64,000 bases of DNA from Patescibacteria group bacterium (GCA_943355005.1 CALRDV010000005.1:4999-68998); one strand, 5' to 3'; positions 7,692-51,424 are shown, counted from the first letter of the stretch. A program made the numbers and translations. The notes: a model not told the origin generated them from the letters alone.

Positions 7692-7692
7692 C

Positions 7693-17928: not shown

Positions 17929-17930
17929 AT

Positions 17931-20537: not shown

Positions 20538-21708
20538 TAAAAAAATAGAAGTTATCAGTAAGTATTTCTCTCCTGCTAACGCCGGGATTGAAGTCAATAT
20601 TACCGAAACCTACAAAATCCTGGCTAAAAAGGGTTGGGATATCACAGTCCACACCTCGACCGACACCTTAACCGAATCAAACGTCCTCCCTTTAACGGAT
20701 CAAATTTTGGGGATGAATGTTAAGAGGTACAAATTTGCTAAATTAGGGTATTTCCCCAAACTTGACTGGGACAATACCGACTTAGTTTGTTTTCATAATT
20801 TCAATGTATTTTACTTTTTTATACTTGCTTATATAGGAATCAGAAAGGTCTTTGGAAAGAAAAATTTCGGAGTAGTCGTCACACCACATGGTGGCTTCAA
20901 TCCGGAATGGTCAATATACCCAAAGCTAATGGTTTTGATAAAGAAGTCTTATCACTTTACAATTGGAACCTTCCTTATAAATAACGTAGTAGATAGAGTT
21001 CGGGCTGTATCGGAATGGGAAAGAAACGAACTTATAAAGTGTAATGTTTCACCGAAAAAAGTAATAACTATCAGTAATGGACTGGAAGATGATGCATATA
21101 GGGATCTGGAATCTCTTGCCGGTAGCGACATAAAGAAAAAGGTTAAAGATCTCGGAAAATATTTAATCCAAGTAGGTAGAGTATATGTAATCAAAAACTA
21201 CGAGACAGTTATAAAGTCTCTCGTAGACATTCCGAATGATGTGAAGTTTGTTATTGCCGGCGGAGTGGAGGGAAACAATAGTTATTTGGAAAGTCTCAAG
21301 ACACTTTCAAGGGAATTAAAGGTAGAAGATCGGGTAGTATTCCTTGGGGTCATTAGAGGTGTTGATAAGTATTACTTGATAAAGAATGCACAAATGATGG
21401 TCCATATGGCAATTTGGGAAAGCTTTTGTAATGTTGTACACGAAGGCATGAGTCAAGGACTTGTATGTATAGTGGCAAACAATACTGCTCTTCCACTACT
21501 TATTAAAGATGGAGTTAATGGCTATTGTGTCGAAACAAAAGATAGTAAAACGCTTTCGGAAAAAATAAACTTTGTGCTAGAAAATCAAAAAAACAAAATA
21601 ATTGTGGACATGAAAGAAAGAAATAGAAAATTTGGACTTGAAGAATCTTGGACAAGCGTAGCTAATAAAATGGATAAGTTATATAAAAGTTTATTGAAAG
21701 CAATATGA
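20530..21708 (+). CDS. Glycosyltransferase family 4 (GT-B fold)
   Basis: It has a two-Rossmann-domain architecture. The C-terminal domain reads KFVIAGGVEG...VHMAIWESFCNVVHEGMSQGLVCI, an E-x7-E-like region. Confidence 0.65.
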   Translation: MANKKIEVISKYFSPANAGIEVNITETYKILAKKGWDITVHTSTDTLTESNVLPLTDQILGMNVKRYKFAKLGYFPKLDWDNTDLVCFHNFNVFYFFILAYIGIRKVFGKKNFGVVVTPHGGFNPEWSIYPKLMVLIKKSYHFTIGTFLINNVVDRVRAVSEWERNELIKCNVSPKKVITISNGLEDDAYRDLESLAGSDIKKKVKDLGKYLIQVGRVYVIKNYETVIKSLVDIPNDVKFVIAGGVEGNNSYLESLKTLSRELKVEDRVVFLGVIRGVDKYYLIKNAQMMVHMAIWESFCNVVHEGMSQGLVCIVANNTALPLLIKDGVNGYCVETKDSKTLSEKINFVLENQKNKIIVDMKERNRKFGLEESWTSVANKMDKLYKSLLKAI

Positions 21709-22439
21709 TGATATTAAATAGCGTAAGAAAATTGTTTTTTCCAGAGCCATATATCGACAATGGTAATTCTCTAAAAAATAAGGTGGTGATAATTACTGGT
21801 GCAAGACGAGGAATCGGACTTGCCACTGCTCAACTGCTTAGAAAAAAGGGTGCTAAGCTTGCGCTAATTTCTAGAAAATTTGAAAGTAAAAAATTAGATG
21901 GAGTTCTATATATTGAAGCCGACATATCTATTGAAGAGGAGTGCCGGAATGCAATTAGTCTGTGTATTAAAAACTATGGGAAAATTGACTGTTTAATTAA
22001 CAACGCCGGAACCTTTATTGACAAGTCGCTGGATCAAACGACTTTGGAGGAATTTAAGAAAATTTTTGAAAATAATGTGTTCGGAATGTTTAATATGACC
22101 AGACTTATTGTTCCATTTATGAAAAAACAAAAAATGGGAACTATCATAAACATTGGTTCAAAAATAAGTCATAATTCCAATGTCACGCCGAATAAAGTTA
22201 CTTATGCCACTAGCAAATATGCTGTAGAAGGATTTTCTTTTTCCTTAAACAAAGAATTGAAAAAATTCGGCATCAGAGTTTGTTGTTTAATGCCGGGAAC
22301 AGTTTCGACATTTATATCTAGACTAAGTAAAGATTATTTATCACCCTTTGAAGTTGCAAATTTAATTAAAATTATTATCGAATCAGAAAATATTGACTTT
22401 GAAAGTATAGTTTTTAAGTCGGTAAGACAAAACATATAA
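21705..22439 (+). CDS. Short-chain dehydrogenase/reductase (SDR)
   Basis: It has VVIITGARRGIGLATA (TGxxxGxG), NNAG, and YATSKYAVEGF (catalytic YxxxK). Confidence 0.85.
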   Translation: MMILNSVRKLFFPEPYIDNGNSLKNKVVIITGARRGIGLATAQLLRKKGAKLALISRKFESKKLDGVLYIEADISIEEECRNAISLCIKNYGKIDCLINNAGTFIDKSLDQTTLEEFKKIFENNVFGMFNMTRLIVPFMKKQKMGTIINIGSKISHNSNVTPNKVTYATSKYAVEGFSFSLNKELKKFGIRVCCLMPGTVSTFISRLSKDYLSPFEVANLIKIIIESENIDFESIVFKSVRQNI

Positions 22440-22444
22440 AGACT

Positions 22445-23950
22445 ATGAATTTCAAACTTCCAAAAATAGTAATTAATCCGGCTTTGGTAATCACTCTTTT
22501 ATTAGCTATATTGCTATTGTTCTTTACCGTTAAGGGAACCAAAAAAACATATTACGACCAAAGCTTGTACGACACCTCAATGGGAAGTCCTTTTGAGTCA
22601 TCTAATAACTCCTCAAGGTATGCTTTGACTGAGGCAATAACGAACAGACTTTCCTTCATATTAACTCCAGAAGAAGCAAAATTTTCTTCTCCAGATGTCG
22701 CAAAAAAGAACAATCGTTACTTTAGTCTTTTTATGCCTGGAGTATCGGTCTTAGGCGCACCCTTGTTTTATATTGGAAAATATTTGGGGTTTCCACAACT
22801 AACTACATATTTGTTAAACGGAATTATTTCGTTAGTGTGCTTACTCTTTATTGTAAAGATTTCAAGAAAAATAGGTGCAAATAAGAACTGGTCAATTATT
22901 AGCGGATTTCTATTTATATTTTCTTCAAATGTTTGGGCGTATTCTCTTGGCTATACTCAGCATTTGCTGACCACACTGTTGGTGTTAATAGGACTCAAAA
23001 TTATACAAAACAAAATTAACGTGTTAAACAATCTCTTTCTTGGAGTTGTCTTCGGAGCCGGCTTAATGGTCGATTTACCAAACGCAATAATTCTGCTACC
23101 TATCGTCATTTATCAGATTTTGCGCCATTTTGAGGTTACATATAAAACATTTAAGATAAATTGGAAATTATTACTTCTTGCTGTTGGGGTGGTTCCTTTT
23201 ATAGCTAGTTTTATTGGTTATAATATTTTGACCACAGGTTCTCCTTTATCTCCGGCACAATTTTTAGGGAGAACTAGCGACTTTTTTGTAACACAGGAAG
23301 AAATCAACATTTATGAGGCCTCTCGTACGGAACCCAAAACTGGCATTAGTCTACCGTTTAAATCTAGAAAGCAACTGCAAGGACTTTATATTTTAATTGT
23401 TTCGAATGAAAGAGGAATCTTGTATTATTCGCCAGTCTTGATATTGGGTTTATTTGGTTTTTATATATCTTCCAAAAATAGAGGAAGTCTTAGTTTCAAT
23501 CAAGTAACTCTGGGAATAATCGGATTAAATTTATTTGTTTACGCAATGTTTGGTGATCCCTGGGGTGGCTGGTCATTTGGACCTAGGTATATGATTCCGG
23601 CAACCGCCGTCATTATGATATATTTCCCATTCTTTTTTGAATCAAAGAAATATCGAGTTTTGAAATCAATTCTGATGGTTATCTTGGCCAGTTACAGTAT
23701 TTATCTCTCTTCCTTGGGGGCACTAACCACATCTATGGTCCCACCAAAACAAGAGGCAATCTACTTTACAAATCCAATCCCATACACCCCGCAACTGAAC
23801 AAAGAATTTATTGAAACTAAAACCAGTTCTCTTTTTTACAATCTTGTTTTAAACGACAAAATATCAACACTTGCCTACTCAAGAGTTATTCTATCGCTTT
23901 GTTTGATTTATTTATTTGGCATGACTATTTACGCAAACACCCATGATTAA
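22445..23950 (+). CDS. Polytopic membrane protein, probably a GT-C-type glycosyltransferase or polymerase
   Basis: About 12 predicted TM helices, with no soluble enzymatic motifs recognised. The assignment rests on context within the glycosylation locus. Confidence 0.45.
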   Translation: MNFKLPKIVINPALVITLLLAILLLFFTVKGTKKTYYDQSLYDTSMGSPFESSNNSSRYALTEAITNRLSFILTPEEAKFSSPDVAKKNNRYFSLFMPGVSVLGAPLFYIGKYLGFPQLTTYLLNGIISLVCLLFIVKISRKIGANKNWSIISGFLFIFSSNVWAYSLGYTQHLLTTLLVLIGLKIIQNKINVLNNLFLGVVFGAGLMVDLPNAIILLPIVIYQILRHFEVTYKTFKINWKLLLLAVGVVPFIASFIGYNILTTGSPLSPAQFLGRTSDFFVTQEEINIYEASRTEPKTGISLPFKSRKQLQGLYILIVSNERGILYYSPVLILGLFGFYISSKNRGSLSFNQVTLGIIGLNLFVYAMFGDPWGGWSFGPRYMIPATAVIMIYFPFFFESKKYRVLKSILMVILASYSIYLSSLGALTTSMVPPKQEAIYFTNPIPYTPQLNKEFIETKTSSLFYNLVLNDKISTLAYSRVILSLCLIYLFGMTIYANTHD

Positions 23951-25514
23951 ATTTATTCAAAACAAATCTGTTGTCTGGTATTTGGCGATAATCTTGTCAA
24001 TCGTTTCCATCTTTACCTTCAAGCTATATCTAGACAACGGTCTGGGTCTTTCCTACAACGACGCGCGTTCACACTTGGACATTGGTCGTCGTGTGGTAGA
24101 AGGTCTTAAGCCGGGCTTAGCTCAGCTCGGCTCAGTCTGGCTACCGCTAGACCACGTCCTCATGATTCCGTTAGTTTGGAATGACTGGGCTTGGCACAGT
24201 GGTTTTGCTGGGGCGTTTTGGAACATGCTTTCTTACGTCGGTATTGGAGTCCTAATTTACAAATATTTAGAGAAGTTAAAAGTTGGTATGGTCGGCAGAC
24301 TGTTCGGAGTATTTGTCTTTGCCAGCAATCTCAATATTTTGTATCTTCAGTCTACCGCCATGACAGAACCTCTTCTTTTGTTCACCATGCTGGCAGGCTG
24401 TTACTACCTCATGATTTGGATGACGGAGGATAGATTGCTGGATCTAATCAAAGCTTCTTTCTGGGTCATGATGTCCACACTGGTACGTTACGATGGCTGG
24501 TTCCTTTTGGCCGTAGTTGCTGGTCTGGTCGCGCTCAGAACTTGGTACAAAAAGGGTTACAAAACTGCCGAAGGTACCCTCATTTTATTCTGTACTGTCG
24601 CCGCTTTTGGTGTTGTATTGTGGTTTGGTTGGAATCTTTTGATTTTCAAAGACCCTCTCTACTTTGCCTTCGGTCCTTACTCCGCCCACGCCCAGCAAGA
24701 GCAAATGCTCGCTGCGGGCGCTTTACCTACCAAAGGCAACGCCGTGCTATCTCTACAGACATATTTGTACTCCATGATCTACAACTCTATTGCCACCGTT
24801 GCTTTCTTGGGTATCATTGCCACATTTGTGCTCTGGTTTGATAAAAAGCTTGATGGGGCAGCCCGTCTTGCCTCCTCGGCTCTCTGGGCACCCTTTGGTT
24901 TCAATATCATCGCCCTCATCTTCGGCTTCTCGGTTATTTTTATTCAAGGAATTTCCGGCAATACCTGGTTCAATGTCCGCTACGGCGTCATGCTCATGCC
25001 GACGCTTGCCATCTTTATTGGGTACTTTGTACATCGTTTCAAAGATTTTCGCTGGGTCATCATTGGACTATTTATGTTTGTTTCCTTCATAGCTTTTACC
25101 AGTAACGACTCTGTCAGTATCGACGATGCTCGTGTTGGAAGCAGTCAGAAAAATGTTTCCGAAGTATCAGGTTGGCTAGAGAAGAATGCCAAAGACAAGC
25201 CGGGTTTCATTATGATTTCTGCTGCCAGCCACGACGCTATTATTTTCTCCAGTAATCTGCCAATGAAGAAGTTTATTCACGAAGGTACTGGTGCATATTG
25301 GGAAAGTGCCGCTATTGCTCCGGACCGCTGGGCCAGATGGATCGTCATGAGAACCCACGATGTGAACGACTCTACCTTTAAGTTTGTCGGTGTCGCTCCG
25401 GGATTTACCAAGTATGATTTAGTAGACAGCTATCCTTTTGCTGATATTTATCAGCTGAGAGATGAATATCTGCCGGATCTAAACACCACCCCCGTCTATG
25501 GCCGTCAAAAATAA
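23943..25514 (+). CDS. Polytopic membrane protein, GT-C-like, with a C-terminal periplasmic domain
   Basis: The N-terminal half has about 11 TM helices and the C-terminal roughly 150 aa is soluble. This architecture is typical of ArnT/PMT/AftD-like GT-C enzymes. Confidence 0.45.
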   Translation: MIKFIQNKSVVWYLAIILSIVSIFTFKLYLDNGLGLSYNDARSHLDIGRRVVEGLKPGLAQLGSVWLPLDHVLMIPLVWNDWAWHSGFAGAFWNMLSYVGIGVLIYKYLEKLKVGMVGRLFGVFVFASNLNILYLQSTAMTEPLLLFTMLAGCYYLMIWMTEDRLLDLIKASFWVMMSTLVRYDGWFLLAVVAGLVALRTWYKKGYKTAEGTLILFCTVAAFGVVLWFGWNLLIFKDPLYFAFGPYSAHAQQEQMLAAGALPTKGNAVLSLQTYLYSMIYNSIATVAFLGIIATFVLWFDKKLDGAARLASSALWAPFGFNIIALIFGFSVIFIQGISGNTWFNVRYGVMLMPTLAIFIGYFVHRFKDFRWVIIGLFMFVSFIAFTSNDSVSIDDARVGSSQKNVSEVSGWLEKNAKDKPGFIMISAASHDAIIFSSNLPMKKFIHEGTGAYWESAAIAPDRWARWIVMRTHDVNDSTFKFVGVAPGFTKYDLVDSYPFADIYQLRDEYLPDLNTTPVYGRQK

Positions 25515-26724
25515 AATCATCTTAGTCCTATTCATTTTTGCAATTTTAATCGTTGCTAGATTTTTTCAACTCTCCTTGGTTGGTGGTTCGGCTACCCCCA
25601 AACAATTTTGGTCTATCCGCTCCATCGATGTGATGAAATATAGCCGTGACTTGGCCAGGGAAAAATTAATGGATCCAAAGTTCGATGTCACCATCGAAAA
25701 TCAAATTAGCGCCATTGCTTCCACCGGCGCAAGTCATGTGGCTCTCGGAGTTCCTTACGATCATGAATTTTTACCCATTATGCGCCGCTGGGTCACTGCT
25801 ATCCGCCGGCACAATATGAAGGTATGGTTCCGTGGCAATCTCTCCGGTTGGGAAGGTTGGTTCGAATACAAAAAGATCGATCAAGAAACTCATACCGCTT
25901 GGATCAAAGACTTTATTCTCAAGAATCAAGATCTTTTTGAAGACGGCGATTTATTTTCCTCCTGTCCGGAGTGCGAGAATGGCGGAGAAGGGGACCCCCG
26001 CCAAACCGGCAAGGTCGAGCAGTATCGTCAGTTCTTAGTAAACGAAACAGACGCTGTCCGTTTTGCTATGCGCAAGATCGGTAGAGATATTCCGGAGAAC
26101 CTTCACTCCATGAACGGGGATGTAGCTAGATTAATCATGGACAAAGAAACCACCAAGAGATTGGGTGGAAATGTGGTCATCGATCATTATGTCGCCACTC
26201 CGGAAAAATTAATTTCCGATATCAGAGAAATGGCTCGGTCCTCAGGTGGCAATATTATTCTTGGCGAATTCGGTGCCCCCATTCCGGATATTCATGGCAA
26301 CATGGACGAAGCTCAGCAATCCAAGTGGGTCGAGTCTGCTCTCCGAGCCATGAGTCAGGAACCTCTGGTGGTCGGTGTCAATTACTGGACTAGCTTCGGA
26401 GGCAGTACCAAGCTCTGGAACGACGACGGAACAGCAAGGCAGGCTGTCGAGGGTGTCTCCAAATACTTCACCCCACCTCAAGCAGCCTCAAAGGTGGTTA
26501 CCTGGTTTGGCCTGCCTGTAGCCGACGCTCAGGTCTATCTGGGTACATATAGTAGTAGTACCTCAGCGGGTGGCTCATTTAGCCTCCCCAGTGTCTCTCA
26601 ATCGACCTTGGAAGTCTCCAAACCTGGCTTTGTAACCTACAAATTCCCCGTAACTTCGACCCAGAAGATTTATCTAGAGCCTACTTCTTTGTTTACCTTC
26701 CTCAAATTCTTCATTTTTTCGTAA
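25498..26724 (+). CDS. Membrane-anchored glycoside-hydrolase-like protein (clan GH-A TIM-barrel, GH5-like)
   Basis: It has an N-terminal TM anchor. NIILGEFGAP resembles the GH5 nucleophile motif (I-x-x-E-F-G), and NLSGWEGWFE may be the acid/base region. Confidence 0.4.
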   Translation: MAVKNKIILVLFIFAILIVARFFQLSLVGGSATPKQFWSIRSIDVMKYSRDLAREKLMDPKFDVTIENQISAIASTGASHVALGVPYDHEFLPIMRRWVTAIRRHNMKVWFRGNLSGWEGWFEYKKIDQETHTAWIKDFILKNQDLFEDGDLFSSCPECENGGEGDPRQTGKVEQYRQFLVNETDAVRFAMRKIGRDIPENLHSMNGDVARLIMDKETTKRLGGNVVIDHYVATPEKLISDIREMARSSGGNIILGEFGAPIPDIHGNMDEAQQSKWVESALRAMSQEPLVVGVNYWTSFGGSTKLWNDDGTARQAVEGVSKYFTPPQAASKVVTWFGLPVADAQVYLGTYSSSTSAGGSFSLPSVSQSTLEVSKPGFVTYKFPVTSTQKIYLEPTSLFTFLKFFIFS

Positions 26725-26795: not shown

Positions 26796-27419
26796 ATGAC
26801 CAAAATGACCACAAAACAAATTGTTAGTATTGTTACCACCTTCGTTTTTACTGCGATAGTTTTAGTCAGTCCCATAACAGCCAAAGCCCAACTCTCTTAC
26901 CCCAATTTTCCCAGCTGTCTGAATCCGAGCGGCACTGTAAAGGTTATCAATGACTCAGGTTCTCACGGAGTTCCCGGAGATACTAGTAATTACACCGGCA
27001 AAGATATTGTTTATACAAATTCGGATGGCAATTACACCCAGTGTCTCTGTACTTCCAATGGAGATGGTATTCAGACCAATTGGTGGAAGACCGGCTCCAT
27101 TACCGAAGAAGAAACAAATACTCTAAAAGCTGACGGCTGGCTCTATATTCCCGATGGTAGTCTTTGGGGATTAGAGAAAGACTCCTACATGGCCAAGAAT
27201 TCCAAATATGCTTGTACTTCCAATACCGAATCCGGTGGTGGCTCTAGTAATAACAGTTCAAGTAATAGTTCTTCATCCAATGGTTCTGTCCAAGGCACTT
27301 CTACTACCCGCTTTGGTCAAGTCCTGGGACTAGCCACTACAGGAACACTTCCTGCTGTCATTGGCTATATTACTCTCGGCGCCATCGCTCTGATCATCTC
27401 CCGAAGATTAACTAAATAA
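26796..27419 (+). CDS. Secreted surface protein with a C-terminal LAxTG-type sorting signal
   Basis: It has a signal peptide and an S/N-rich stalk (GGGSSNNSSSNSSSSNGS). The C-terminus reads LATTG, then TLPAVIGYITLGAIALII (hydrophobic), then SRRLTK (a positively charged tail). Confidence 0.55.
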   Translation: MTKMTTKQIVSIVTTFVFTAIVLVSPITAKAQLSYPNFPSCLNPSGTVKVINDSGSHGVPGDTSNYTGKDIVYTNSDGNYTQCLCTSNGDGIQTNWWKTGSITEEETNTLKADGWLYIPDGSLWGLEKDSYMAKNSKYACTSNTESGGGSSNNSSSNSSSSNGSVQGTSTTRFGQVLGLATTGTLPAVIGYITLGAIALIISRRLTK

Positions 27420-27464: not shown

Positions 27465-27995
27465 ATGTTTAAAAAATTCCTCTCTGCTCTATTTTTTATC
27501 TCCGGGATATTCTTGATCTCTCTCGGTTTTGTGGATTTGGCCAAAAGACAAGGAATCATTACCCCGGAGGAAGTCATACCATCACCTTCGTTGGCTACCG
27601 AAGAGCCTCTCTTGATTTTTCTTCCCAAAGTCGGCATCAAACTCCCAATCTATCCGACGGAAATAAAAGACCGGAAATGGCCAACCACCGAAAGCGGTGT
27701 GTCATATATCAAAGATTCAGGTAGGCTCGGTGTTTCAGGTAATCTAGTGATGTACGGCCACAACTGGAAAAACCTTCTAGGCAGTCTCAAGAATTCCAAA
27801 GTTGGCGATACTCTGGACATTTTCTCCAATCAAAACAAAAATCATTCGTACGTCATCAAGTACGTCGCCACAGTAGACGCCAAAGACGTCAGTATTCTCG
27901 CCGATACCTCATCTGAAAGAATCACTCTCTACACCTGTACCGGGCTCCTAGACTCACAGCGCTTCGTCGTCGTCGCCGAAAGAATCAAAAGCTAA
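27465..27995 (+). CDS. Sortase (class E-like transpeptidase)
   Basis: It has an N-terminal TM anchor, NLVMYGHNW (catalytic His), ITLYTCTG (TLxTC catalytic Cys) and RFVVVAERI (conserved Arg). Confidence 0.7.
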   Translation: MFKKFLSALFFISGIFLISLGFVDLAKRQGIITPEEVIPSPSLATEEPLLIFLPKVGIKLPIYPTEIKDRKWPTTESGVSYIKDSGRLGVSGNLVMYGHNWKNLLGSLKNSKVGDTLDIFSNQNKNHSYVIKYVATVDAKDVSILADTSSERITLYTCTGLLDSQRFVVVAERIKS

Positions 27996-28023: not shown

Positions 28024-28608
28024 ATGAACAAACTTTTAGGTCTAAGTCTGCTCGTCATTCTCATTGTTACTTTAGCAAAGCAATTCACTCCAGCTTTTCA
28101 GCAGGAAGTGGGTTACAAGATGAAGAAGGTTGAAACATTTTCAAAGACCGAGATTCGAGCCATTACCCCCGTAGATACCGATTTTGGAATTGTCATTCCC
28201 AAAATCGACGCCAACTCCGCGATCGTCAAAGATGTCGATCCTTACGATGAGCTTGCTTACACTCAAGCCTTTACTGCGGGTATCGCCCATGTCAAAGGCT
28301 CTGTGATGCCGGGCCAAAAGGGCAATATTTTTCTCTTCGCCCAGAACTCAGCCGATTCTTTTAAGTCTTCCAAATTTAATCAAACATTTTATCTCCTAAA
28401 CAAAATGGAAGCAGGGGATGAGATCTATCTATACTACGGCAGGAAAAAATATGTCTACATCGTGACGGACAAGAAAATTGTTGCCAGAAGCACCGTCGAG
28501 TATCTTTCGGATGATAAGTCGGCCGAAACCATTACCCTGATGACCACCTACCCGCCTGCCACTTCCCTGATGCGGGTCCTCGTCCACGCCACCCTTCAGA
28601 AGATTTAG
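28024..28608 (+). CDS. Sortase-fold paralogue, probably catalytically inactive
   Basis: It is homologous in length and layout to the upstream sortase, but the TLxTC box reads ITLMTTYPP (no Cys) and the His box reads NIFLFAQNS (no His). Confidence 0.45.
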   Translation: MNKLLGLSLLVILIVTLAKQFTPAFQQEVGYKMKKVETFSKTEIRAITPVDTDFGIVIPKIDANSAIVKDVDPYDELAYTQAFTAGIAHVKGSVMPGQKGNIFLFAQNSADSFKSSKFNQTFYLLNKMEAGDEIYLYYGRKKYVYIVTDKKIVARSTVEYLSDDKSAETITLMTTYPPATSLMRVLVHATLQKI

Positions 28609-29547: not shown

Positions 29548-32223
29548 ATGCCCTCCGGCCAGAGATTTTCTCATCAAAAACTATTTTTAATTCGATTTCT
29601 TTTGATTGCTGGCTTTATTGGCAACGGTATCTATCTTTGGTGGCGGATGAATCCTTTATTTTGGAATAATTCTTTTCTTTCGATACTTCTTTTGGTTGCC
29701 GAATTGGTTTTTTTTGCAAACATGGTTATTCATCTTCCTGTGTTGTGGTTCCGGAAGCCCACACCTATTCCTTTAAGTCCGCCGGTAGGCCCGATAAAAA
29801 TTGCTTTAGTCATTCCTACCTACAATGAATCCATTAAGCTTCTATCCAATACTTTAAAGCACTGTCTAAATTTAGATATTCCTCCAAACATTAAACTTAA
29901 GGTTGTTGTCTTGGATGATGGACAGCGTCCGTGGCTGAAAGAATTTGTCTCCAAAGAAGGCCGTTCCGGCGGACGCACGAAGCTAGAATATGTCTCTCGC
30001 AGTATCAGGAATGGGTTTAAAGCAGGCAACATAAATCATTATTTGGAAGAATATTGCAAAGAGGATTGGCTCCTGGTTCTGGATGCAGACTTCGTTCCAA
30101 GACGTGACATTCTCTCCAAATTTTATCCTTATCTCGGGACAAGTAGTTTAGGCTTTGTCCAAGCCCCCCAAAGCTTTGACAATATCCCATTTACTGACCC
30201 CTTTGGCCAAGACCCCGACCTCTGGTTCTCGATATTGGAGGTAGGTAGAGAAGGTCAAGACTCTCTTATCTGCTGTGGCACTCCTACCATTTTTTCTGTC
30301 CCGGCTCTGCGCAAGATTCACGGCATGCAGTTAGGAGTGACGGAAGACTTCATTACGGGGGTTACTATGCAATCATACGGATATCGATCGGCATACATTC
30401 ACGAAACAATAGCTATTGGCAAATCAAGTACCGACATGGCAGATGTTACCAATAAAGCCGAAAGATACGCTTCCGGAGCATTTGAATTTGTTTTCGAGCG
30501 AAAAAAATGGCGTCTAGGACAAAAGCTAAGTTTTTGGCAAAAATTTATTCACTTTACCTACCCATTATCTTTTCTGGCCCCTCTTTTTACTCCAATTCTG
30601 ATTATGATGCCAATTATCTCTCTGATGACCGGAATAAGTCCTTTTGTCATCGATCAAAGCAGTAGACCTTATCTGGTAATTCAGCTACTTTCGCTTCTAA
30701 GTTTAGAGGTGATATTTTTCTCTTTGGTTGGCACCAAAGCCTGGCGTGCTTGGCAATTTTATTGGGGCATGTTTCCGGCTAGTTTTACCGCCGTTTTTAG
30801 GACATTATTTGGGCGGGCGATCTTTAAAGTCAGTGAAAAGGGAGATAGCAATCAGGTCTCCGGTCTGACTCAATTAAGATTTGTAATATGGCAATTGTTT
30901 TTCTTTCTGCTTGGGTTGGTCGCTCTGGCTCAATCCTTATTGTTGTTTGTAAGGGGAGAGTTAAATATTTCTCTTTATCCTGCAGTCGGATGGCTGATAC
31001 TAAACTCTGCACTTCTATCCGGTGTTATTAGTCCGCCGTTCCGCAAAATCGTTCTGGAATTTAAGTCCATCACGATAACCAAAAAAGTCTTAATTTTTGC
31101 ACCTCTATTGGCAACGTTTTTTATGATTGTATATCTTGGAAATGTCGTGAGAGATAAGTTCGTAACACCGAGCGACAGAATCCAAGATGAGGAAGTTGTC
31201 GGAAATGTTTCCAAAAATGCAGACCGGTTCGCTGTCTCACTTGATAGAGTAAATGCCAAGCTAAGCAAAACCGGAGAAAATAATTTTCAAAAATTATTAT
31301 TCTTTATTGGCTGGGACGAAAACACAGAGGAGTCAGGTATTGCACAGTTCAAAAGCGAAGTCGAACCGGTCCTAGATCTCGCATACAGTCGTCATATGAC
31401 TCCTATCATTACTTGGGAGCCAAAATTTACGGATTCAGCCAAAAGTCTTTCTTTGACGGATATTGTTTCCGGTGATAGTGATAGATATTTGAGGGGATGG
31501 AGAAGTGAATTGCAGAAATGGTTTGACACACATAAAGGATATGAAGTAAGGATTCGCTTTATGCATGAAATGAATGCGCCTATTGCAGAATATCCTTGGA
31601 GTCATTTAGCCCCTGCGGACTATAAAGCAATACATGAACATGTTTATTCCGAGATTGGTCAAGTCGAAGGTAATTTGAAGTGGATGTTAGTCTTCCAAAA
31701 TTTGACTTCGGATGCCAACTGGCAAAACAAGCGTGCCTCCGATTATGAAAAATACGTTCCAAATATTCCTTTTGAGTACATTGGAATAGATGGATACAGC
31801 CGTCCTTTTAAGAAAGGAATCGACGGCCCTCCCGGAGGTGAAGTCACTCCTCAACAAGTACTTCCCGAGGCATTTTTCCGGATCATGCACGAGAAGTTCC
31901 CGAAGGCTCAGCTGGTGATAAGTGAAACCTCTGTGCCGTATTTATCCAAGACCGACGAAGCTGTACCGTATCCGACAGGAAAGACATCTTTCAAGATGAC
32001 GGACACGGAAAGATCTGAATGGATTAAAGATTTGCAACAATACACCATTAAACTTGGGCAAAAATACGGACTATCGGAAGTTACTTGGTTTGATGGTAAT
32101 ACAGATTATCACTGGTCACTCATTGCTCCGGAAGATAAGCTAACTATCGCCTCATTTGGAAAAATGATTTCAGCATTACAGGCCAGTGGAATTGCTGTTG
32201 GGATTTATCCGGGGGGAAAATGA
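29548..32223 (+). CDS. Fusion protein: an N-terminal processive GT2 (cellulose-synthase-like) membrane synthase and a C-terminal GH26-like glycoside hydrolase domain
   Basis: The GT2 motifs are IALVIPTYNES, VVVLDDGQ (DDG), LVLDADFVP (DxD), VTEDFITG (TED) and AERYASGAFE (a degenerate QxxRW). Six or more TM helices follow. The C-terminal domain has ITWEPKF, IRFMHEMNAPIAEYPW (the GH26 R-x-x-HEMN acid/base box) and LVISETSV (the nucleophile region). Confidence 0.7.
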   Translation: MPSGQRFSHQKLFLIRFLLIAGFIGNGIYLWWRMNPLFWNNSFLSILLLVAELVFFANMVIHLPVLWFRKPTPIPLSPPVGPIKIALVIPTYNESIKLLSNTLKHCLNLDIPPNIKLKVVVLDDGQRPWLKEFVSKEGRSGGRTKLEYVSRSIRNGFKAGNINHYLEEYCKEDWLLVLDADFVPRRDILSKFYPYLGTSSLGFVQAPQSFDNIPFTDPFGQDPDLWFSILEVGREGQDSLICCGTPTIFSVPALRKIHGMQLGVTEDFITGVTMQSYGYRSAYIHETIAIGKSSTDMADVTNKAERYASGAFEFVFERKKWRLGQKLSFWQKFIHFTYPLSFLAPLFTPILIMMPIISLMTGISPFVIDQSSRPYLVIQLLSLLSLEVIFFSLVGTKAWRAWQFYWGMFPASFTAVFRTLFGRAIFKVSEKGDSNQVSGLTQLRFVIWQLFFFLLGLVALAQSLLLFVRGELNISLYPAVGWLILNSALLSGVISPPFRKIVLEFKSITITKKVLIFAPLLATFFMIVYLGNVVRDKFVTPSDRIQDEEVVGNVSKNADRFAVSLDRVNAKLSKTGENNFQKLLFFIGWDENTEESGIAQFKSEVEPVLDLAYSRHMTPIITWEPKFTDSAKSLSLTDIVSGDSDRYLRGWRSELQKWFDTHKGYEVRIRFMHEMNAPIAEYPWSHLAPADYKAIHEHVYSEIGQVEGNLKWMLVFQNLTSDANWQNKRASDYEKYVPNIPFEYIGIDGYSRPFKKGIDGPPGGEVTPQQVLPEAFFRIMHEKFPKAQLVISETSVPYLSKTDEAVPYPTGKTSFKMTDTERSEWIKDLQQYTIKLGQKYGLSEVTWFDGNTDYHWSLIAPEDKLTIASFGKMISALQASGIAVGIYPGGK

Positions 32224-32242
32224 TATACAATTTGCGCAGGAC

Positions 32243-33379
32243 ATGACAAACATAAATCAAAATATTCAAAAATTCATCCCGGTATTTTTGGTTGGGATTG
32301 GATTAATTTTGGTCTTTGCGGTTGCAATGTATTCTAGATATAACAATCAAGACCCAAGGTCTTTAGGATACAGTGGGAAACCTGTTCCGGTTGAGGTGTC
32401 ATTTCCGGATATTACCGAGAGTACGCCGTCTTCCACCCCTTCACCACAAATCACCAAGAAAATGCCGCTCTATTTGGGATTTTCTTTTGAGCCGTTTGAT
32501 GATCAGCACATTGCAGATATGTCAAAGATGGTTGGAGATAATCAAACCATAGCCAACACTTATTTACAGTGGGGGAATCCGGGCAATTCACGTTTTACTC
32601 CTGAGTTATTTCAAGTTTTTACACGGCGAAATATGACCCCTATGATTACCTGGGAACCTTGGGTACCGGGTGCCGGTGTCAATCAGTCTGAATATTCACT
32701 TGCTGTGATATCCGGAGGGAAATACGATGATTACATTCGTCAGTCTGCCAATGAAATAAAGAAGTATGGCCGACCCGTTTTTATCAGGTTCGCTCATGAG
32801 ATGAATGGTGATTGGTACCCTTGGTCCGGTACTGTAAACGGTAATACTCCTTCTCAGTATGTAGCTACTTGGAAACACGTCGTAGATATTTTCAAATCGG
32901 AAAATGTTAGCAATGTCACCTGGGTCTGGTGTCCCAATGCCGGTAGTTACCCTGCCGTTCCTGCAAACGATTTATCCAGATATTATCCCGGCGATGCGTA
33001 TACGGACTGGGTGGGTTTAGATGGTTACAACTGGGGAGAGTATCAGGGAAGTCAGGGATGGAATAGCTTCGACAAGATATTCGGCACTTCATTCACCAAA
33101 ATGTCCAAGATTACCTCTAAGTCGTTAATGATTGCTGAAGTTGGTTCAAATGAACTTGGTGGTAAGAAAAGCGACTGGATGAAGGAATTTTTATCTCCGA
33201 ACTTAACTCAAAAGTATCCCCAATTGGGCGCCATAATTTATTTCAATTTAAAGAAGGAAGTGGATTGGCGTATCCAATCGTCACCCGAATCGCTCAAAGC
33301 CTTTGTTGAGTCTCTTGGTCGACAAACCATTGCAAAACAAGTAAGTACCTCCAATCAAAAGATTATTCAGTCAAAGTAA
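32243..33379 (+). CDS. Membrane-anchored GH26-like glycoside hydrolase (beta-mannanase family)
   Basis: It has an N-terminal TM helix, MITWEPW, FIRFAHEMNGDWYPW and MIAEVGS. It is paralogous to the C-terminus of the upstream fusion protein. Confidence 0.65.
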   Translation: MTNINQNIQKFIPVFLVGIGLILVFAVAMYSRYNNQDPRSLGYSGKPVPVEVSFPDITESTPSSTPSPQITKKMPLYLGFSFEPFDDQHIADMSKMVGDNQTIANTYLQWGNPGNSRFTPELFQVFTRRNMTPMITWEPWVPGAGVNQSEYSLAVISGGKYDDYIRQSANEIKKYGRPVFIRFAHEMNGDWYPWSGTVNGNTPSQYVATWKHVVDIFKSENVSNVTWVWCPNAGSYPAVPANDLSRYYPGDAYTDWVGLDGYNWGEYQGSQGWNSFDKIFGTSFTKMSKITSKSLMIAEVGSNELGGKKSDWMKEFLSPNLTQKYPQLGAIIYFNLKKEVDWRIQSSPESLKAFVESLGRQTIAKQVSTSNQKIIQSK

Positions 33380-33384
33380 TCAGG

Positions 33385-34428
33385 GTGGCAAGTAAAATGA
33401 AAAAAAAGAAGGTTCAGGAAGTCAGCTACGTCAAATATTTATTTGGGTTTACCCTGGTCCTCTTTATATTTGTCGGTACATGGGTTTGGAAATTTTATCA
33501 AACCTCCGTATCAAGCCAATCCAATATATTACTGGTCAGTTCGCTCATCAATCCTCCGGACAAAATATTTTTCCAGGGAATTACAGGCACTCATAGTTTA
33601 AGAACTTTCCGGTCTTTGCATTTGGATGAGTTAAACTCGTCTGGGAATCAGATTCCTAGCTTCTTCTTAGGTCGGTATCAAAGTTGGTCGCAAGACGAGC
33701 TCGCCAAAGCAGATTTTGTATTCTTGGAGCAAGTTCACAAAGCCGGAGCCATACCTTACATCTCATGGGAGCCTTGGTCCGGGTCCCGTTTGGCTACACC
33801 AAGCTCTCAAATTGCTTATCGGCTTGCAAACATCGTTAGAGGCGATTTTGATAGCTATATCCACACATATGCGTCTGATTTAAAGAAGTTTGGCTATCCT
33901 GTTCTGTTGCGGTTCGCTCACGAGATGAATGGTGATTGGTATCCATGGGGGATAGATGTAAATTCAAATACCTCTAAAGATTTCGTTGACGCCTGGAGAC
34001 ACGTTCACGATATTTTTATTTCGGAAGGGGCTATAAATGTTTTGTGGCTTTGGGCACCGAACGAACCTTTTGGCGGTAAAAATGGGACTAACTCGGCAAA
34101 ATATTCTACATTTTATCCCGGGGACAGTTATGTAGATTGGGTCGGATTCTCTGCGTACAATTGGGGAGAAGCGAGAGAATTTAATGTCAACAGAAGTTTT
34201 TCAACCATGGTATCCAAAGCATATGATTTACTTGTCCCATTCAGGAAACCCATTATGCTGGCCGAATCAAACAGTTCTATTACCGGCGTAGACAAGGCAG
34301 ACTGGATCAAAAATATGAAAGCAGATCTAAAGAAATTTCCTTTAATTAGAGGTGCAATTTGGTATGAAAGCGACGACGGTTCATTTAGTATCGAAAAAGA
34401 ATTGTTTTTAGTGCCATTTGTGCCATAA
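33385..34428 (+). CDS. Membrane-anchored GH26-like glycoside hydrolase (paralogue)
   Basis: It has an N-terminal TM helix, YISWEPW, LLRFAHEMNGDWYPW and MLAESNS. Confidence 0.65.
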   Translation: MASKMKKKKVQEVSYVKYLFGFTLVLFIFVGTWVWKFYQTSVSSQSNILLVSSLINPPDKIFFQGITGTHSLRTFRSLHLDELNSSGNQIPSFFLGRYQSWSQDELAKADFVFLEQVHKAGAIPYISWEPWSGSRLATPSSQIAYRLANIVRGDFDSYIHTYASDLKKFGYPVLLRFAHEMNGDWYPWGIDVNSNTSKDFVDAWRHVHDIFISEGAINVLWLWAPNEPFGGKNGTNSAKYSTFYPGDSYVDWVGFSAYNWGEAREFNVNRSFSTMVSKAYDLLVPFRKPIMLAESNSSITGVDKADWIKNMKADLKKFPLIRGAIWYESDDGSFSIEKELFLVPFVP

Positions 34429-35637: not shown

Positions 35638-36381
35638 ATGAAAGGAATTATTTTAGCGGGTGGAAGAGCCACCAGACTCCGACCATTGACTTGGGTGATC
35701 AGTAAACAATTGTTACCGATCTACAACAAACCCATGATCTATTACCCTATCGAAACTCTTACCAGAGCCGGAATCAAAGATATCTTAATAATTCTTGCTC
35801 CGGAAAATGCCGGACTCTTTTTGAATCTTCTGGGGACCGGTGATCAGTTTGGAGTTCACTTCAGTTACGTCATTCAGAAGGAGCCGAAAGGTTTAGGTGA
35901 AGCCTTTATTCTTGGTGAAGATTTTTTGGACAACGACAACGTCACGATGGCTCTTGGGGACAATATATTTGACGAAGATTTTTCTAAACAAATTAATTCA
36001 TTCAAGTCAGGTGGACAAATCTATGTCAAGAAGTTAGACAGAATTGAGGAAGTCAGAAGACTTGGAGTAGTGGAGATAGATAAAAATAATAAGGTCCTAT
36101 CCATAGAAGAAAAGCCGGAGCACCCCAAATCTATGTATGTCTCTACCGGTCTTTATACCTACGATTCACGAGTAGTGGAAATCGCCAAGAATCTTAAACC
36201 TTCCGCTAGGGGAGAGCTAGAGATTAGTGGTAACCCCAGTATTAGTAATACATTTCTAGAGTCGGGAGAGCTTAAGGCTTGCGTCTTTGATAGTTACTGG
36301 CAGGATGCCGGCACCTTCGATAGTCTTTTGGAAGCCGGCAATCACATGGCCGAGAAAGAAAAATTAGCTAAAAAAATATGA
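35638..36381 (+). CDS. rmlA: Sugar-1-phosphate nucleotidylyltransferase (a short glucose-1-phosphate thymidylyltransferase-like RmlA)
   Basis: MKGIILAGGRATRLRPLT is the G-x-G-x-R-L pyrophosphorylase motif. The gene heads the rmlBCD operon. Confidence 0.75.
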   Translation: MKGIILAGGRATRLRPLTWVISKQLLPIYNKPMIYYPIETLTRAGIKDILIILAPENAGLFLNLLGTGDQFGVHFSYVIQKEPKGLGEAFILGEDFLDNDNVTMALGDNIFDEDFSKQINSFKSGGQIYVKKLDRIEEVRRLGVVEIDKNNKVLSIEEKPEHPKSMYVSTGLYTYDSRVVEIAKNLKPSARGELEISGNPSISNTFLESGELKACVFDSYWQDAGTFDSLLEAGNHMAEKEKLAKKI

Positions 36382-37376
36382 AACTCTTAGTCACAGGCGG
36401 CGCCGGTTTTATTGGTTCAAATTTTATCCGCTACTGGCTGGAAAAATATCCTTCGGACCAAATAATTACTTTAGATTCTCTTACATATGCCGGTCATTTG
36501 AGTTCTTTGTCGGATATAGAAAAAAATCCCAACTACGCTTTTGTCAAAGGAGATATTACGGATCCGGTAATTGTCGATGAGCTGGTTTCTCAGGTAGACA
36601 CTATTGTTCATTTTGCCGCCGAGTCCCACGTCGACAGGTCTGTTAAGGACCCCTTGGTTTTTGTCAAAACCAATATCATCGGAACTCAAACTTTATTGGA
36701 AGCCGCCAAAAAGCATGGTAATAAAAGATTCCATCACATTTCTACCGACGAAGTATTTGGTGCATTGACACTTGGTACAGACGCCAAGTTCGATGAAAAC
36801 ACACCCTACGACCCTAGAAGTCCTTACTCCGCTTCCAAAGCCGGCTCAGACCATCTTGTCCGGGCATATTTTCACACCTTTGGACTGCCCATTACGATTA
36901 CCAATTGTAGTAACAATTTCGGACCCTACCAAGATACGGAGAAATTTATTCCCAGGATGATTACCAATCTTCTGCAGGGAGAGAAAGTAAAAATTTATGG
37001 CGATGGACTCTATGTCCGTGATTGGCTCTACGTTCTAGATCACTGCTCTGCCATCGATGCTGTTCTTAAGAAAGGCAAAATAGGGGATACTTACACCGTA
37101 GGTGGGCTTACCAAGGATTACTCAAATCTAGATATCACCATGATGATTCTGAAGATGATGGGTAAGGACGAAAGTAGTATTGAATACGTTACTGATCGCC
37201 CTGGTCACGATCGCCGCTATGCCGTCAACTGGTCCAAAATAAATAAAGAGCTCGATTGGTCTCCGTCCGCCGATTTTGATTTCAGGTTACAGGAAACCAT
37301 TACCTGGTACAATTCGAACCAATCTTGGTGGAAAGATATGAAAATCACTTCAGAAAACTTTTATAAAAATAAATAA
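36378..37376 (+). CDS. rmlB: dTDP-glucose 4,6-dehydratase
   Basis: It has LLVTGGAGFIGSNF, the YSASKAGSDHLVRAY catalytic YxxxK, and TDEVFG. Confidence 0.9.
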   Translation: MKLLVTGGAGFIGSNFIRYWLEKYPSDQIITLDSLTYAGHLSSLSDIEKNPNYAFVKGDITDPVIVDELVSQVDTIVHFAAESHVDRSVKDPLVFVKTNIIGTQTLLEAAKKHGNKRFHHISTDEVFGALTLGTDAKFDENTPYDPRSPYSASKAGSDHLVRAYFHTFGLPITITNCSNNFGPYQDTEKFIPRMITNLLQGEKVKIYGDGLYVRDWLYVLDHCSAIDAVLKKGKIGDTYTVGGLTKDYSNLDITMMILKMMGKDESSIEYVTDRPGHDRRYAVNWSKINKELDWSPSADFDFRLQETITWYNSNQSWWKDMKITSENFYKNK

Positions 37377-37382
37377 ACCAAT

Positions 37383-37946
37383 ATGGGGCTGATCAAAATA
37401 AAACACAAATCAATCGCCCTGCCCAAAAATACCAAGCTTTATCGTCAAACATACGAAAAGACCGAGGGCATCAAAGATGTCCATGTTCTTAAAGTAAATG
37501 TTTTTGCAGATGATTATGGTGGTTGGTTTAAGGAGTCTATGAGATTAGATACCAAGGGAAACAATGTCGCTCTCAAAGAGCTTGGGTTATCGTTTCACCC
37601 CATCCAAACCAATACCTCATTTTTGGCACCCAAGACCAAACGATTTTGGCACATTCATCCGAAACAAAATGAAATCTGGACTACAAGTGGCACAATACTC
37701 ATGGGTCTTATCGACTACCGGCCAGAATCTATTACTTATCGCACTAAGATGAAAGTCATTCTTTCTTCTGACAAATTGATTTATATACCCGCCGGCGTCG
37801 CTCATGGTTTTATCAATCCCAATTTTGATCCGGTTGTTCTAAACTATTTTACGGATCAATACTTCGTGGCGAATGAATTTACCCAAGAATGTCGCATAGA
37901 CCCCAAAGTTGTATCCTTCGATTTTGTCAAACCGGAAAAAATGTAA
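37383..37946 (+). CDS. rmlC: dTDP-4-dehydrorhamnose 3,5-epimerase-like cupin
   Basis: It has a cupin fold with FWHIHPKQNEIWT and GVAHGF. The identification relies on its operon position between rmlB and rmlD. Confidence 0.65.
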   Translation: MGLIKIKHKSIALPKNTKLYRQTYEKTEGIKDVHVLKVNVFADDYGGWFKESMRLDTKGNNVALKELGLSFHPIQTNTSFLAPKTKRFWHIHPKQNEIWTTSGTILMGLIDYRPESITYRTKMKVILSSDKLIYIPAGVAHGFINPNFDPVVLNYFTDQYFVANEFTQECRIDPKVVSFDFVKPEKM

Positions 37947-37948
37947 AT

Positions 37949-38887
37949 ATGAAAGAAAAAATACTCGTCACCGGCGCAACAGGATTAGTAGGTTCAAGAT
38001 TCGTCGAACTTGCCAAAGAATACAGTCTCTATACTCCGACATCAGAGGAAATGGATATTAATAATCCAAGTTCTGTGAAGTCTTATGTGGAGAAAACAAA
38101 TCCGGATTGGATTATCAACTTCGCCGCTTTTACAGATGTAAATGCTTCAGAAGAACAAACCGGTGACAACACCGCTAGCGCATGGCAAATAAATGTGGTT
38201 GGAGTGCAGAATTTGCTTGGCGCTTTCAAGTCCAAAAATATTATTCAAATATCTACGGACATGGTTTTCCCGGGAGATTTATCACAGCCAGGACCCTATG
38301 CCGAGACAGATATACCACCCACCACAAACGAAAAACTTACCTGGTATGGCTGGACCAAAAATAGAGCCGAAAAATTAATCAATGAAAGAGGTGGTACTGT
38401 TCTTAGAATTATTTATCCCGTTAGATCAAGTTTTGAGGATAAATTAGACTATATTCGAGGAGCCCTCAAAAAATTTGTTGAAGGTAAGATGTATCCCTTG
38501 TTTCATGACCAGCAAATCTCTATCGCCTTTGTAGACGAAATAGTCACTACTCTTAAGAAAATTATTGAGAATGACGCACACGGTGTTTTTCATGCTTCAT
38601 CCGACACCACTACGCCTCATGAATTAATTTCCTTCGTAATTAAGCAACTTGGTGGCGATGAATCATTGGTTAAATCAGCCTCAATTCATGATTTTCTGGC
38701 GACTCAAAAGAATGCCAATCGTTATCCGGTTTTTGGTGGTCTAAAGTCTAAGCTTACAGAAGAAAGATTGTTTGGTGGACTAAAAACTGTTATTACCGAA
38801 GAAGAGCTAAGCACTCATTTCTCTACATGGCAAACTGTGGTCGAGTATCTCATTGGCCAAGGTCTCACCTTGCCTGATAAGCAATAA
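37949..38887 (+). CDS. rmlD: dTDP-4-dehydrorhamnose reductase
   Basis: It begins MKEKILVTGATGLVGSRF and has an NAD(P)-binding Rossmann fold of RmlD size. The start was taken at MKEK rather than at the ORF start 37889, which overlaps rmlC. Confidence 0.7.
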   Translation: MKEKILVTGATGLVGSRFVELAKEYSLYTPTSEEMDINNPSSVKSYVEKTNPDWIINFAAFTDVNASEEQTGDNTASAWQINVVGVQNLLGAFKSKNIIQISTDMVFPGDLSQPGPYAETDIPPTTNEKLTWYGWTKNRAEKLINERGGTVLRIIYPVRSSFEDKLDYIRGALKKFVEGKMYPLFHDQQISIAFVDEIVTTLKKIIENDAHGVFHASSDTTTPHELISFVIKQLGGDESLVKSASIHDFLATQKNANRYPVFGGLKSKLTEERLFGGLKTVITEEELSTHFSTWQTVVEYLIGQGLTLPDKQ

Positions 38888-51395: not shown

Positions 51396-51424
51396 GGTCG
51401 TTCTTCCATATATAATTACATCAC

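Follow-up and report, generated by a model that had tools for sequence, protein, structure and literature searches.

A three-gene Patescibacteria module predicted to join a processive GT2 synthase to membrane-tethered GH26 domains

Synthase-dependent systems for exopolysaccharides are nearly always equipped with a cognate hydrolase, for a reason that is debated. Here we analysed three genes in a stretch of 64,000 nucleotides from a Patescibacteria group bacterium (GCA_943355005.1, CALRDV010000005.1:4999-68998; this whole stretch is called the window, and positions are counted from its first letter). Three tightly spaced open reading frames (ORFs), all on the + strand, fill positions 29548-34428, as an initial annotation had proposed. 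From their sequences and relatives, we consider it probable that they form a self-contained synthase-dependent beta-glycan system with tethered cognate glycanases. The first gene would encode a membrane synthase of glycosyltransferase family 2 (GT2), joined in one polypeptide to a domain related to glycoside hydrolase family 26 (GH26), and the other two would encode membrane-anchored GH26 enzymes:

29548..32223, + strand: gene 1, 891 residues; predicted BcsA-like processive GT2 fused through a seventh transmembrane (TM) helix to a divergent GH26-like domain
32243..33379, + strand: gene 2, 378 residues from the ATG at 32243; predicted type II TM-anchored GH26 of the CtLic26A subfamily
33385..34428, + strand: gene 3, 347 residues from the GTG at 33385 or 343 residues from the ATG at 33397; predicted TM-anchored GH26 paralogue

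Gene 1 stops at the TGA 32221-32223, and the ATG of gene 2 at 32243 lies 19 nucleotides past this stop. A public gene call of 378 residues (P0157) fits this ATG, which is most likely the true start, rather than the GTG at 32186 overlapping gene 1 that had been assumed initially. The stop of gene 2 ends at 33379 and the GTG at 33385 is 5 nucleotides downstream; for gene 3 as well the earlier extent probably has to be shortened, the ATG at 33397, preceded by a Shine-Dalgarno-like AGGGTG, being the more likely start. The intergenic gaps thus measure 19 nucleotides between genes 1 and 2 and about 5-17 nucleotides between genes 2 and 3, and the three genes look like one operon. When the module region was scanned for promoter and terminator consensus sequences, the counts equalled the shuffled expectation. 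A search of the window against Rfam gave no matches, with no rRNA or tRNA.

The following features were placed along gene 1 by hydropathy, by alignment and with AlphaFold2 (AF2) models:

29581..29745, + strand: TM1-TM2 hairpin, residues 12-66, N-terminal to the catalytic domain (hydropathy; AF2 helices at 9-33 and 42-66)
29794..30507, + strand: cytoplasmic GT-A catalytic domain, residues 83-320 (Pfam, BcsA alignment)
30454..30468, + strand: KAERY, residues 303-307, which substitutes for the QxxRW acceptor/UDP-binding motif
30532..31062, + strand: interface helices and TM3-TM6, residues 329-505, predicted glycan channel with gating loop (hydropathy, AF2)
31075..31161, + strand: TM7, residues 510-538, an extra helix behind a Lys/Arg-rich loop, PPFRKIVLEFKSITITKK (hydropathy, AF2)
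31204..32220, + strand: predicted divergent GH26-like (beta/alpha)8 domain, residues 553-891
31567-31569, + strand: acid/base candidate Glu674, in the HEMN box
31924-31926, + strand: nucleophile candidate Glu793, in ISETS, residues 791-795

By all comparisons the N-terminal part of gene 1 classes as a BcsA-type processive GT2 synthase. Four Pfam families match residues 85-451 above their gathering scores (Glyco_trans_2_3, Glycos_transf_2, Glyco_tranf_2_3 and Cellulose_synt), and the top NCBIfam match is the cellulose synthase catalytic subunit CelA (E 1.7e-40, far under the equivalog cut-off). The best match in a sequence search of the PDB is E. coli BcsA (E 6e-30 over residues 17-496). An AF2 model built on an alignment of 76 sequences reached a mean predicted local distance difference test (pLDDT) of 86.6, and with this model Foldseek also placed BcsA at the top (E 3e-25, about 550 columns), ahead of CesA from plants, CslF6 from barley and hyaluronan synthases. 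The signature motifs and TM helices of such enzymes lie where they had been described: DDG at 123-125, KAGNIN at 158-163, DAD at 179-181 and TED at 265-267. We also observed ICCGT (241-245), the counterpart of FFCGS in BcsA, and a gating loop, FKVSEK (426-431), where BcsA has FxVTxK. In an alignment of 70 BcsA-like sequences, the motif columns of the catalytic domain are at least 90% conserved.

The QxxRW motif had been called degenerate in the initial annotation. It is indeed replaced, KAERY of gene 1 aligning with QRIRW of E. coli BcsA, but not by random decay. All five full-length family members share K303, R306 and Y307, and so does a naturally split synthase, P0006, while in the same alignment the first column is Q in 64 of the 64 sequences outside the family and the last is W in 60 rows. 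Because the family keeps its own residues where the other sequences keep Q, we regard KxxRY as a fixed family trait on the strength of this alignment. In QxxRW the Trp makes a stacking contact with the acceptor glucose (PMC6821405), and by analogy Tyr307 could do so with the acceptor sugar.

Gene 1 has two TM helices, the GT domain, interface helices, four further TM helices, the Lys/Arg-rich loop and then TM7, as read from hydropathy and the AF2 model; the 2+4 pattern is that of BcsA-like synthases devoid of PilZ. In BcsA the chain is cytoplasmic past the last channel helix. Since TM7 adds one helix past such a channel, the C-terminal domain of gene 1 should be extracytoplasmic according to this model. 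A natural split at another locus, L005, supports this outward topology: there the synthase (P0006, 520 residues) ends just past TM6, and a separate gene, P0123, which overlaps it by ATGA, begins with MKKIFIIFSLILVLVFVL, the equivalent of TM7 as an N-terminal signal anchor, and continues into the divergent domain. The products of genes 2 and 3 each possess one N-terminal hydrophobic helix preceded by basic residues, as seen from hydropathy, and are predicted to be type II anchored with the enzyme outside:

32273-32329, + strand: gene 2, N-terminal TM anchor
32798-32800, + strand: gene 2, putative acid/base Glu
33137-33139, + strand: gene 2, putative nucleophile Glu
33430-33486, + strand: gene 3, N-terminal TM anchor
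33922-33924, + strand: gene 3, putative acid/base Glu
34264-34266, + strand: gene 3, putative nucleophile Glu

Both proteins had been described as GH26-like with TM anchors, and both match the Pfam family Glyco_hydro_26 (PF02156) well above its gathering score of 20.2, with 64.1 bits for gene 2 and 57.5 bits for gene 3. In the PDB their best match is CtLic26A, the beta-1,3;1,4-glucanase (lichenase) that forms the GH26 domain of Clostridium thermocellum CelH (2bv9), with E 4.2e-49 for gene 2 and 2.4e-34 for gene 3. The next other GH26 enzyme for gene 2 is a beta-1,3-xylanase (2e-11), with mannanases at about 1e-9; for the two genes together, the best GH26 other than CtLic26A lies at about 1e-11 and mannanases lie at about 1e-9 to 1e-10. 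The catalytic residues of CtLic26A, which we take to be Glu109 and Glu222 in a numbering that agrees with the gene 2 alignment, have equivalents in both proteins, so that the catalytic Glu pair looked for at the outset is conserved in each. These equivalents are invariant in all orthologues of the gene 2 type (g2, E205 and E318) and of the gene 3 type (g3, E180 and E294).

The fused domain of gene 1 is far more diverged. Over 279 residues it is 27% identical to gene 2 (BLASTP, E 1e-14), and a profile of its seven-member family aligns by hhalign with a profile of g2, g3 and CtLic26A at 99.55% probability (E 1.8e-23). When the family profile was compared with all PDB sequences, only CtLic26A was returned (E 1.3e-4). 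An exhaustive phmmer search of 1.84 billion representative proteins gave three clusters below 1e-30, which are the fused-domain family itself, then a gap, then 85 weak matches from 6.5e-10 to 1e-3; nine of the ten weak matches sampled are GH26 by Pfam. The (beta/alpha)8 fold that had been anticipated was predicted, with eight beta/alpha units in both AF2 models, and the closest structure is again CtLic26A, at 21% identity. These comparisons lead us to class the fused domain as a divergent GH26, and all three domains as members of the CtLic26A branch, not of the mannanase branch.

The active site of the fused domain could be followed in the same way. RFMHEMN...YPW stands at residues 670-684, and R670, H673, E674, N676, Y682, W684, Y750 (in IDGY), E793 and W846 are invariant in 7/7 family members. 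Most of these residues align with the R-x-x-H-E-x-N...Y-P-W, DGY and beta-8 Trp of the CtLic26A type, and by this alignment E674 is the acid/base equivalent. Because the sequence aligners disagree around the nucleophile, we placed it from AF2 strand positions. E793 closes the matching strand, predicted at 788-794 (QLVISET) in both models, after a helix and a three-residue turn, and the position of this strand matches that of KPIIIAE in CtLic26A. Of the Glu pair of the fused domain, the acid/base is aligned and invariant, and E793 is likely the nucleophile on the basis of the models.

Such divergence raises the question of whether the fused domain is an enzyme at all. It might instead be a non-catalytic guide comparable to BcsB or CcsB, which binds the chain as it emerges, orients it and helps TM7 to stabilise the synthase, genes 2 and 3 being the only hydrolases. 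This would fit a domain so much more diverged than g2 and g3, having no Pfam match and retained beside a canonical g2; moreover, no BcsB or CcsB gene was found among the scanned genes, and TM7 followed by an extracellular carbohydrate-binding fold mimics the arrangement of the BcsB anchor (PMC7710045, PMC8892547). However, the HEMN box, R670, Y750, the Glu that ends beta-7 and the Trp of beta-8 would not be expected to stay invariant in 7/7 members of a dead enzyme, and at one related locus, L003, the place of the fused domain is taken by a fully canonical g2. We consequently hold the guide role to be improbable.

Relatives of the module are rare. Among 5.8 billion clusters searched, full-length relatives are very few (P0002-P0005); the GH26 domain of P0005 matches PF02156, but it is a g2-type domain. 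The order synthase with fused domain, g2, g3 is found in the window and in L001 (GCA_034680565.1), L002/L008 (GCA_964645645.1), JGI 3300071358 and L004/L007. Since the flanking genes differ entirely at each of these loci, the three genes appear from synteny to be a conserved unit. The KxxRY synthase of L003 continues in frame into a complete g2, with 69% identity to the g2 of L004, linker included; a g3 follows, and the divergent domain is missing. A profile search with the divergent-domain alignment returned only L004 and L002 again among genome contigs, and no relatives among metagenome contigs. The coupling of synthase and hydrolase put forward in the initial annotation is therefore supported both by synteny across unrelated flanks and by the existence of alternative fused and split forms.

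Two particularities of these loci were observed. In L003 (1-7700), the fused synthase-g2 gene adjoins resolvase, HTH/MerR, DnaB_C and GP3_package genes, a gene content that hints at a prophage or mobile element next to it. In L004 (7959-8032, = L007), the gene 1 orthologue is broken into two overlapping ORFs at a T8 homopolymer, which may reflect phase variation, a pseudogene or a mistake in the assembly.

A covalent fusion of GT2 to GH26 had been considered unusual. It is rare but not unique, as a second lineage exists. Among the outgroup homologues of gene 2 that were checked, the closest ones are P0226, P0227, P0228 and P0231, the last of which its source names Candidatus Saccharimonadales; each is encoded directly upstream of a protein of 855-866 residues, composed of a GT2 with a canonical QQMRW and, after a TM helix, a g3-like GH26. 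This GT2 is Glyco_transf_21-like and only 27% identical to that of gene 1. Fusions of this second lineage are present in at least four Saccharimonadales-like contigs (L010 286-4080, L011 6001-9879, L013 5001-8846 and L015 5001-8788), where the context, downstream of DNA polymerase I, is conserved, and apparently this module is also undescribed. Because an independent GT2 lineage is also fused to GH26, the fusion is a recurrent design in these uncultured bacteria, of which the family of the window is a rare sub-lineage. The Saccharimonadales-like pairs (about 860 residues) thus share with gene 1 a GT2 C-terminally fused after a TM helix to a CtLic26A-like GH26, with a second GH26 adjacent; they differ from it by their GT2 lineage, by a canonical g3-like fused GH26, and by two GH26 copies instead of three, with the standalone GH26 upstream.

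These loci also bear on the idea that the GH26 proteins digest environmental or host beta-glucans and that the proximity of the GT2 is devoid of functional meaning. CtLic26A itself degrades plant biomass, and GH26s of the Lic26A-like kind occur widely (more than 2,300 matches at E<1e-10). A foraging role is nevertheless highly improbable in view of the covalent fusion to a synthase in two GT2 lineages, of the invariant gene order despite unrelated flanks, of the tethering of the enzymes to the membrane rather than their secretion, and of the lack of any sugar transporter or catabolic gene in the module.

Genes 2 and 3 are 42% identical to each other. In the g3 type, DGYNWG is replaced by SAYNWG, an EPF segment is inserted and the C-terminus is truncated; orthologues of gene 3 were identified in L001, L002, L003 and L004. 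As genes 2 and 3 each form their own orthologous set across the loci, the three paralogues are separately maintained. The fused domain, for its part, carries three long inserts, at roughly residues 718-735, 753-767 and 796-815 (31699-31752, 31804-31848 and 31933-31992), whose sequence is invariant in 7/7 members and which are modelled with a pLDDT below 50; these loops may form a contact surface with the synthase or with g2 or g3, or else cover the cleft as a lid. The domain also replaces W114 and the NWG segment of CtLic26A and is devoid of its GDW segment.

From these features one may imagine that at least one GH26 domain, especially the fused one, acts mainly as a transglycosylase: the nascent chain would be cut and moved to another glycan or wall acceptor, or a second linkage type introduced, and the glucan would be attached to the wall or surface and not released as an exopolysaccharide. 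The retaining chemistry of clan GH-A permits transglycosylation, the separate conservation of the paralogues suggests non-redundant roles, the invariant loops are absent from hydrolytic GH26s, and all three domains are membrane-tethered, not secreted. Yet our literature searches turned up no precedent for a GH26 transglycosylase, genes 2 and 3 resemble ordinary hydrolases of the CtLic26A type, and the L003 variant does without the diverged domain altogether, so that we find such remodelling unlikely.

The nature of the polymer was then considered from both partners. The GT2 alone cannot decide it, its best solved relatives being cellulose synthases. In a plasmid collection, its best match by score is a synthase from a Sinorhizobium megaplasmid (32% identity, E 2e-43, pairwise), while enterobacterial bcsA products are 27-28% identical to it. 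The Sinorhizobium gene adjoins an HlyD-type gene and a GGDEF-EAL gene, a context like that of bgsBA, and BgsA is the rhizobial mixed-linkage glucan synthase (PMC6821405, PMC10374906). The specificity of a cognate hydrolase has already served to deduce a polymer, in the case of CcsZ (PMC7710045). Because cognate hydrolases match their polymer, the hydrolase partners can be used as reporters here; with a lichenase as the closest match of all three domains, they favour a beta-glucan with beta-1,3/beta-1,4 junctions. Our tentative assignment of the product, from these sequence affinities and somewhat short of an even chance, is a mixed-linkage glucan; cellulose or another beta-glucan is possible with distinctly less confidence, and other glycans share the remaining probability. 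In the initial annotation, a mannan or a mixed-linkage glycan had been preferred to cellulose: the CtLic26A branch favours the mixed-linkage or beta-glucan part of this proposal and disfavours mannan, but cellulose keeps a place.

A coupled system that makes another polymer altogether, whether plain cellulose, a beta-1,3-glucan or a non-glucan (beta-mannan, beta-1,3-xylan, an amino-sugar polymer), with GH26 domains of matching specificity, deserves to be weighed in this context. Among solved structures and in NCBIfam, after all, the GT2 matches cellulose synthases best, GH26 spans mannanases and beta-1,3-xylanases, and the change to K and Y at QxxRW could reflect a different acceptor sugar. 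But the three GH26 domains match lichenase far better than any mannanase or xylanase, FxCGx and TED resemble those of glucan synthases, and the GT2 is slightly closer to the bgsA-like synthase than to bcsA; we regard this alternative as doubtful, while conceivable.

For the coupled beta-glycan system that we prefer, the following mechanism can be proposed. In the cytoplasm, the GT2 of gene 1 would add a sugar drawn from a nucleotide sugar, UDP-glucose most likely, to the chain's non-reducing end, and the chain would be threaded outward through the six-helix channel of the GT2 itself. TM7 would return the polypeptide outward and tether the divergent GH26 domain by the channel exit, and the products of genes 2 and 3 would sit on the same membrane's outer face, attached by their N-terminal signal anchors. 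The three GH26 domains, predicted to be retaining and to use a Glu/Glu machinery, would most likely cut the synthase's own product, most likely a beta-glucan with beta-1,3/beta-1,4 junctions of the mixed-linkage type, in a role like that of BcsZ, CcsZ, PssZ or PslG, i.e. chain release, length-trimming or the clearing of stalled chains. What the analysis shows is the identity of the domains, their folds, the conservation of the motifs, the predicted topology and the conserved linkage of the genes. We infer polymerisation and translocation by the GT2 from homology, and the processing of the chain on the outer face from the topology, the linkage of the genes and the conservation of catalytic residues; the donor sugar, the type of linkage, hydrolysis by the enzymes and their part in trimming have the same status.

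A more specific possibility, which we rate as a long shot, is that the fused GH26 is an obligatory extracellular partner, docked on the channel exit through its invariant loops, which cuts or transglycosylates the emerging chain; a single-polypeptide synthase-transglycosylase would then set length, linkage or attachment. If so, the co-evolved KxxRY would reflect an unusual acceptor geometry, and the module would be a minimal device for building wall glucan in ultra-small bacteria resembling the candidate phyla radiation (CPR).

Several observations weigh against the coupled system as proposed. On the synthase side, gene 1 departs from QxxRW, the defining motif of processive GT2 synthases, and if K303 and Y307 impaired polymerisation the model would break. 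The linkage and donor specificity of a GT2 is not readable from sequence at about 30% identity. The predicted template modelling score (pTM) of the gene 1 model is only 0.67, which concerns the placement of the GH26 domain relative to the channel exit. As to the fused domain, the claim that gene 1 runs into a GH26 domain holds for the RFMHEMN/YPW and SETS motifs, which are present, and for remote homology, but Pfam gives no match even at E<=10, PF02156 included. In the nucleophile segment BLASTP, hhalign and MAFFT L-INS-i each shift the alignment, and a second invariant Glu, E804 (in KTDE), sits in a low-confidence inserted loop, which bears on the assignment of E793. Genes 2 and 3 are 37-41% identical to CtLic26A, so their specificity need not match, in a family that also includes beta-1,3-xylanases and mannanases. 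Finally, no g2 or g3 follows the split pair on the short contig of L005.

The principle of a synthase with its cognate hydrolase is already known from BcsA/BcsZ and CcsA/CcsZ, and the module shares several traits with them. Like BcsA, gene 1 is predicted to be a processive membrane GT2 with D/DxD/TED motifs, a gating loop and its own translocation channel, and as with BcsZ, a GH8 enzyme, an extracytoplasmic glycanase would be encoded in the same operon. Unlike Bcs systems, the module has two and not four N-terminal TM helices in its synthase, KxxRY and not QxxRW, and no PilZ, BcsB or BcsC: the Pfam scan detected no PilZ domain (PF07238) in gene 1, though many listed homologues carry one, and no BcsB (PF03170) among the scanned neighbour genes. 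Its hydrolase is a GH26 of clan GH-A present in three copies, one of them fused via an extra TM helix. The clostridial ccsZABHI system (CcsA with CcsZ, a GH5; PMC7710045) likewise associates a GT2 with a (beta/alpha)8 hydrolase of clan GH-A bearing a single N-terminal TM anchor, in a bacterium devoid of an outer membrane. It differs by its hydrolase subfamily, GH5_25 instead of the lichenase subfamily of GH26, by a CcsB-like protein with a carbohydrate-binding module and by acetylation genes, both lacking from the module, and by a hydrolase that is neither fused nor triplicated.

BgsA (bgsBA, Sinorhizobium) and RiGT2 (Romboutsia ilealis; PMC10374906, PMC6821405) are likewise BcsA-like GT2s with few N-terminal TM helices, and their type of product would fit lichenase-type partners, the identity being too low to transfer linkage specificity. 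In contrast to gene 1, BgsA binds cyclic di-GMP (c-di-GMP) and works with the HlyD-type BgsB, and RiGT2 carries a PilZ domain; the QxxRW of both is canonical, and neither is reported together with a hydrolase, cognate or fused. No membrane fusion protein gene (HlyD-type BgsB) was found in or beside the module, and the C-terminus of gene 1 is a GH26-like domain, not a c-di-GMP-binding one. CtLic26A, the best sequence match of genes 2 and 3 and the best structural match of the fused domain, is a secreted cellulosomal module that degrades biomass, whereas the domains described here would be membrane-tethered partners of a synthase; it also has none of the three long family-specific loops of the fused copy, which lacks the GDW and NWG segments.

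Our literature searches gave no description of GT2-GH26 fusions, of GH26 in cellulose or exopolysaccharide operons, or of Patescibacteria or Saccharibacteria with GH26; the nearest mention is a GH26 gene in a Wzx/Wzy cluster, called uncharacterised (PMC13390465). The use of a lichenase-type GH26, a covalent fusion made via an additional TM helix, the maintenance of three paralogues and the fixed KxxRY are apparently not described either. With its hydrolase joined to the synthase and its natural split and swapped forms, the module offers a compact single-polypeptide system in which to consider the coupling of synthesis and cleavage, and it nominates a candidate bacterial pathway for mixed-linkage beta-glucan with built-in partners of the lichenase type. 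It also sets a predicted processive GT2 with a fixed KxxRY against the supposedly universal QxxRW, and points to a surface-glycan system in uncultured bacteria that are poorly understood and probably live as episymbionts.

The neighbourhood of the module in the window contains other genes related to the cell envelope. By the presence of type IV pilus genes, of sortases and of numerous GT and PMT_2 genes, the gene content appears to resemble that of Patescibacteria. A TM-anchored protein of 408 residues (25498-26724) was considered as a fourth hydrolase; it has no PDB or Pfam support beyond a sub-threshold CarboxypepD_reg match and is absent from the related loci, and we place it outside the module. 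The flanking rmlABCD, sortase and CAP/YkwD genes were set aside in the same way, as they are not conserved in the related loci.

Further features of the window are as follows:

26796-27419: secreted protein of 207 residues ending in LATTG, a hydrophobic stretch and RRLTK, which resembles an LPXTG-type sorting signal
27465-27995 and 28024-28608: two tandem sortase genes (Pfam Sortase), directly downstream of the 207-residue protein
12258-17039: multidomain glycosyltransferase of 1593 residues (GT2 + GT4/GT1), at the edge of a low-GC island
16000-24000: low-GC island (GC 0.34-0.36 versus about 0.42) with three GT2 genes, a polysaccharide deacetylase, a GT1 and a short-chain dehydrogenase/reductase
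35638-38887, 4562-9531 and 47098-53269: further cell-envelope genes, none conserved next to the module elsewhere

The segment 26796-28608 is probably a cassette of sortases and their substrate with a non-canonical motif, to judge from its gene content, and the low-GC island appears to be a separate surface-glycan cluster. The further envelope genes comprise a dTDP-rhamnose set (rmlA/B/C/D-like), genes for PilB/PilC of a type IV pilus and for a pilin-like protein with LVIVD repeats, and several genes of the PMT_2 type (GT-C).

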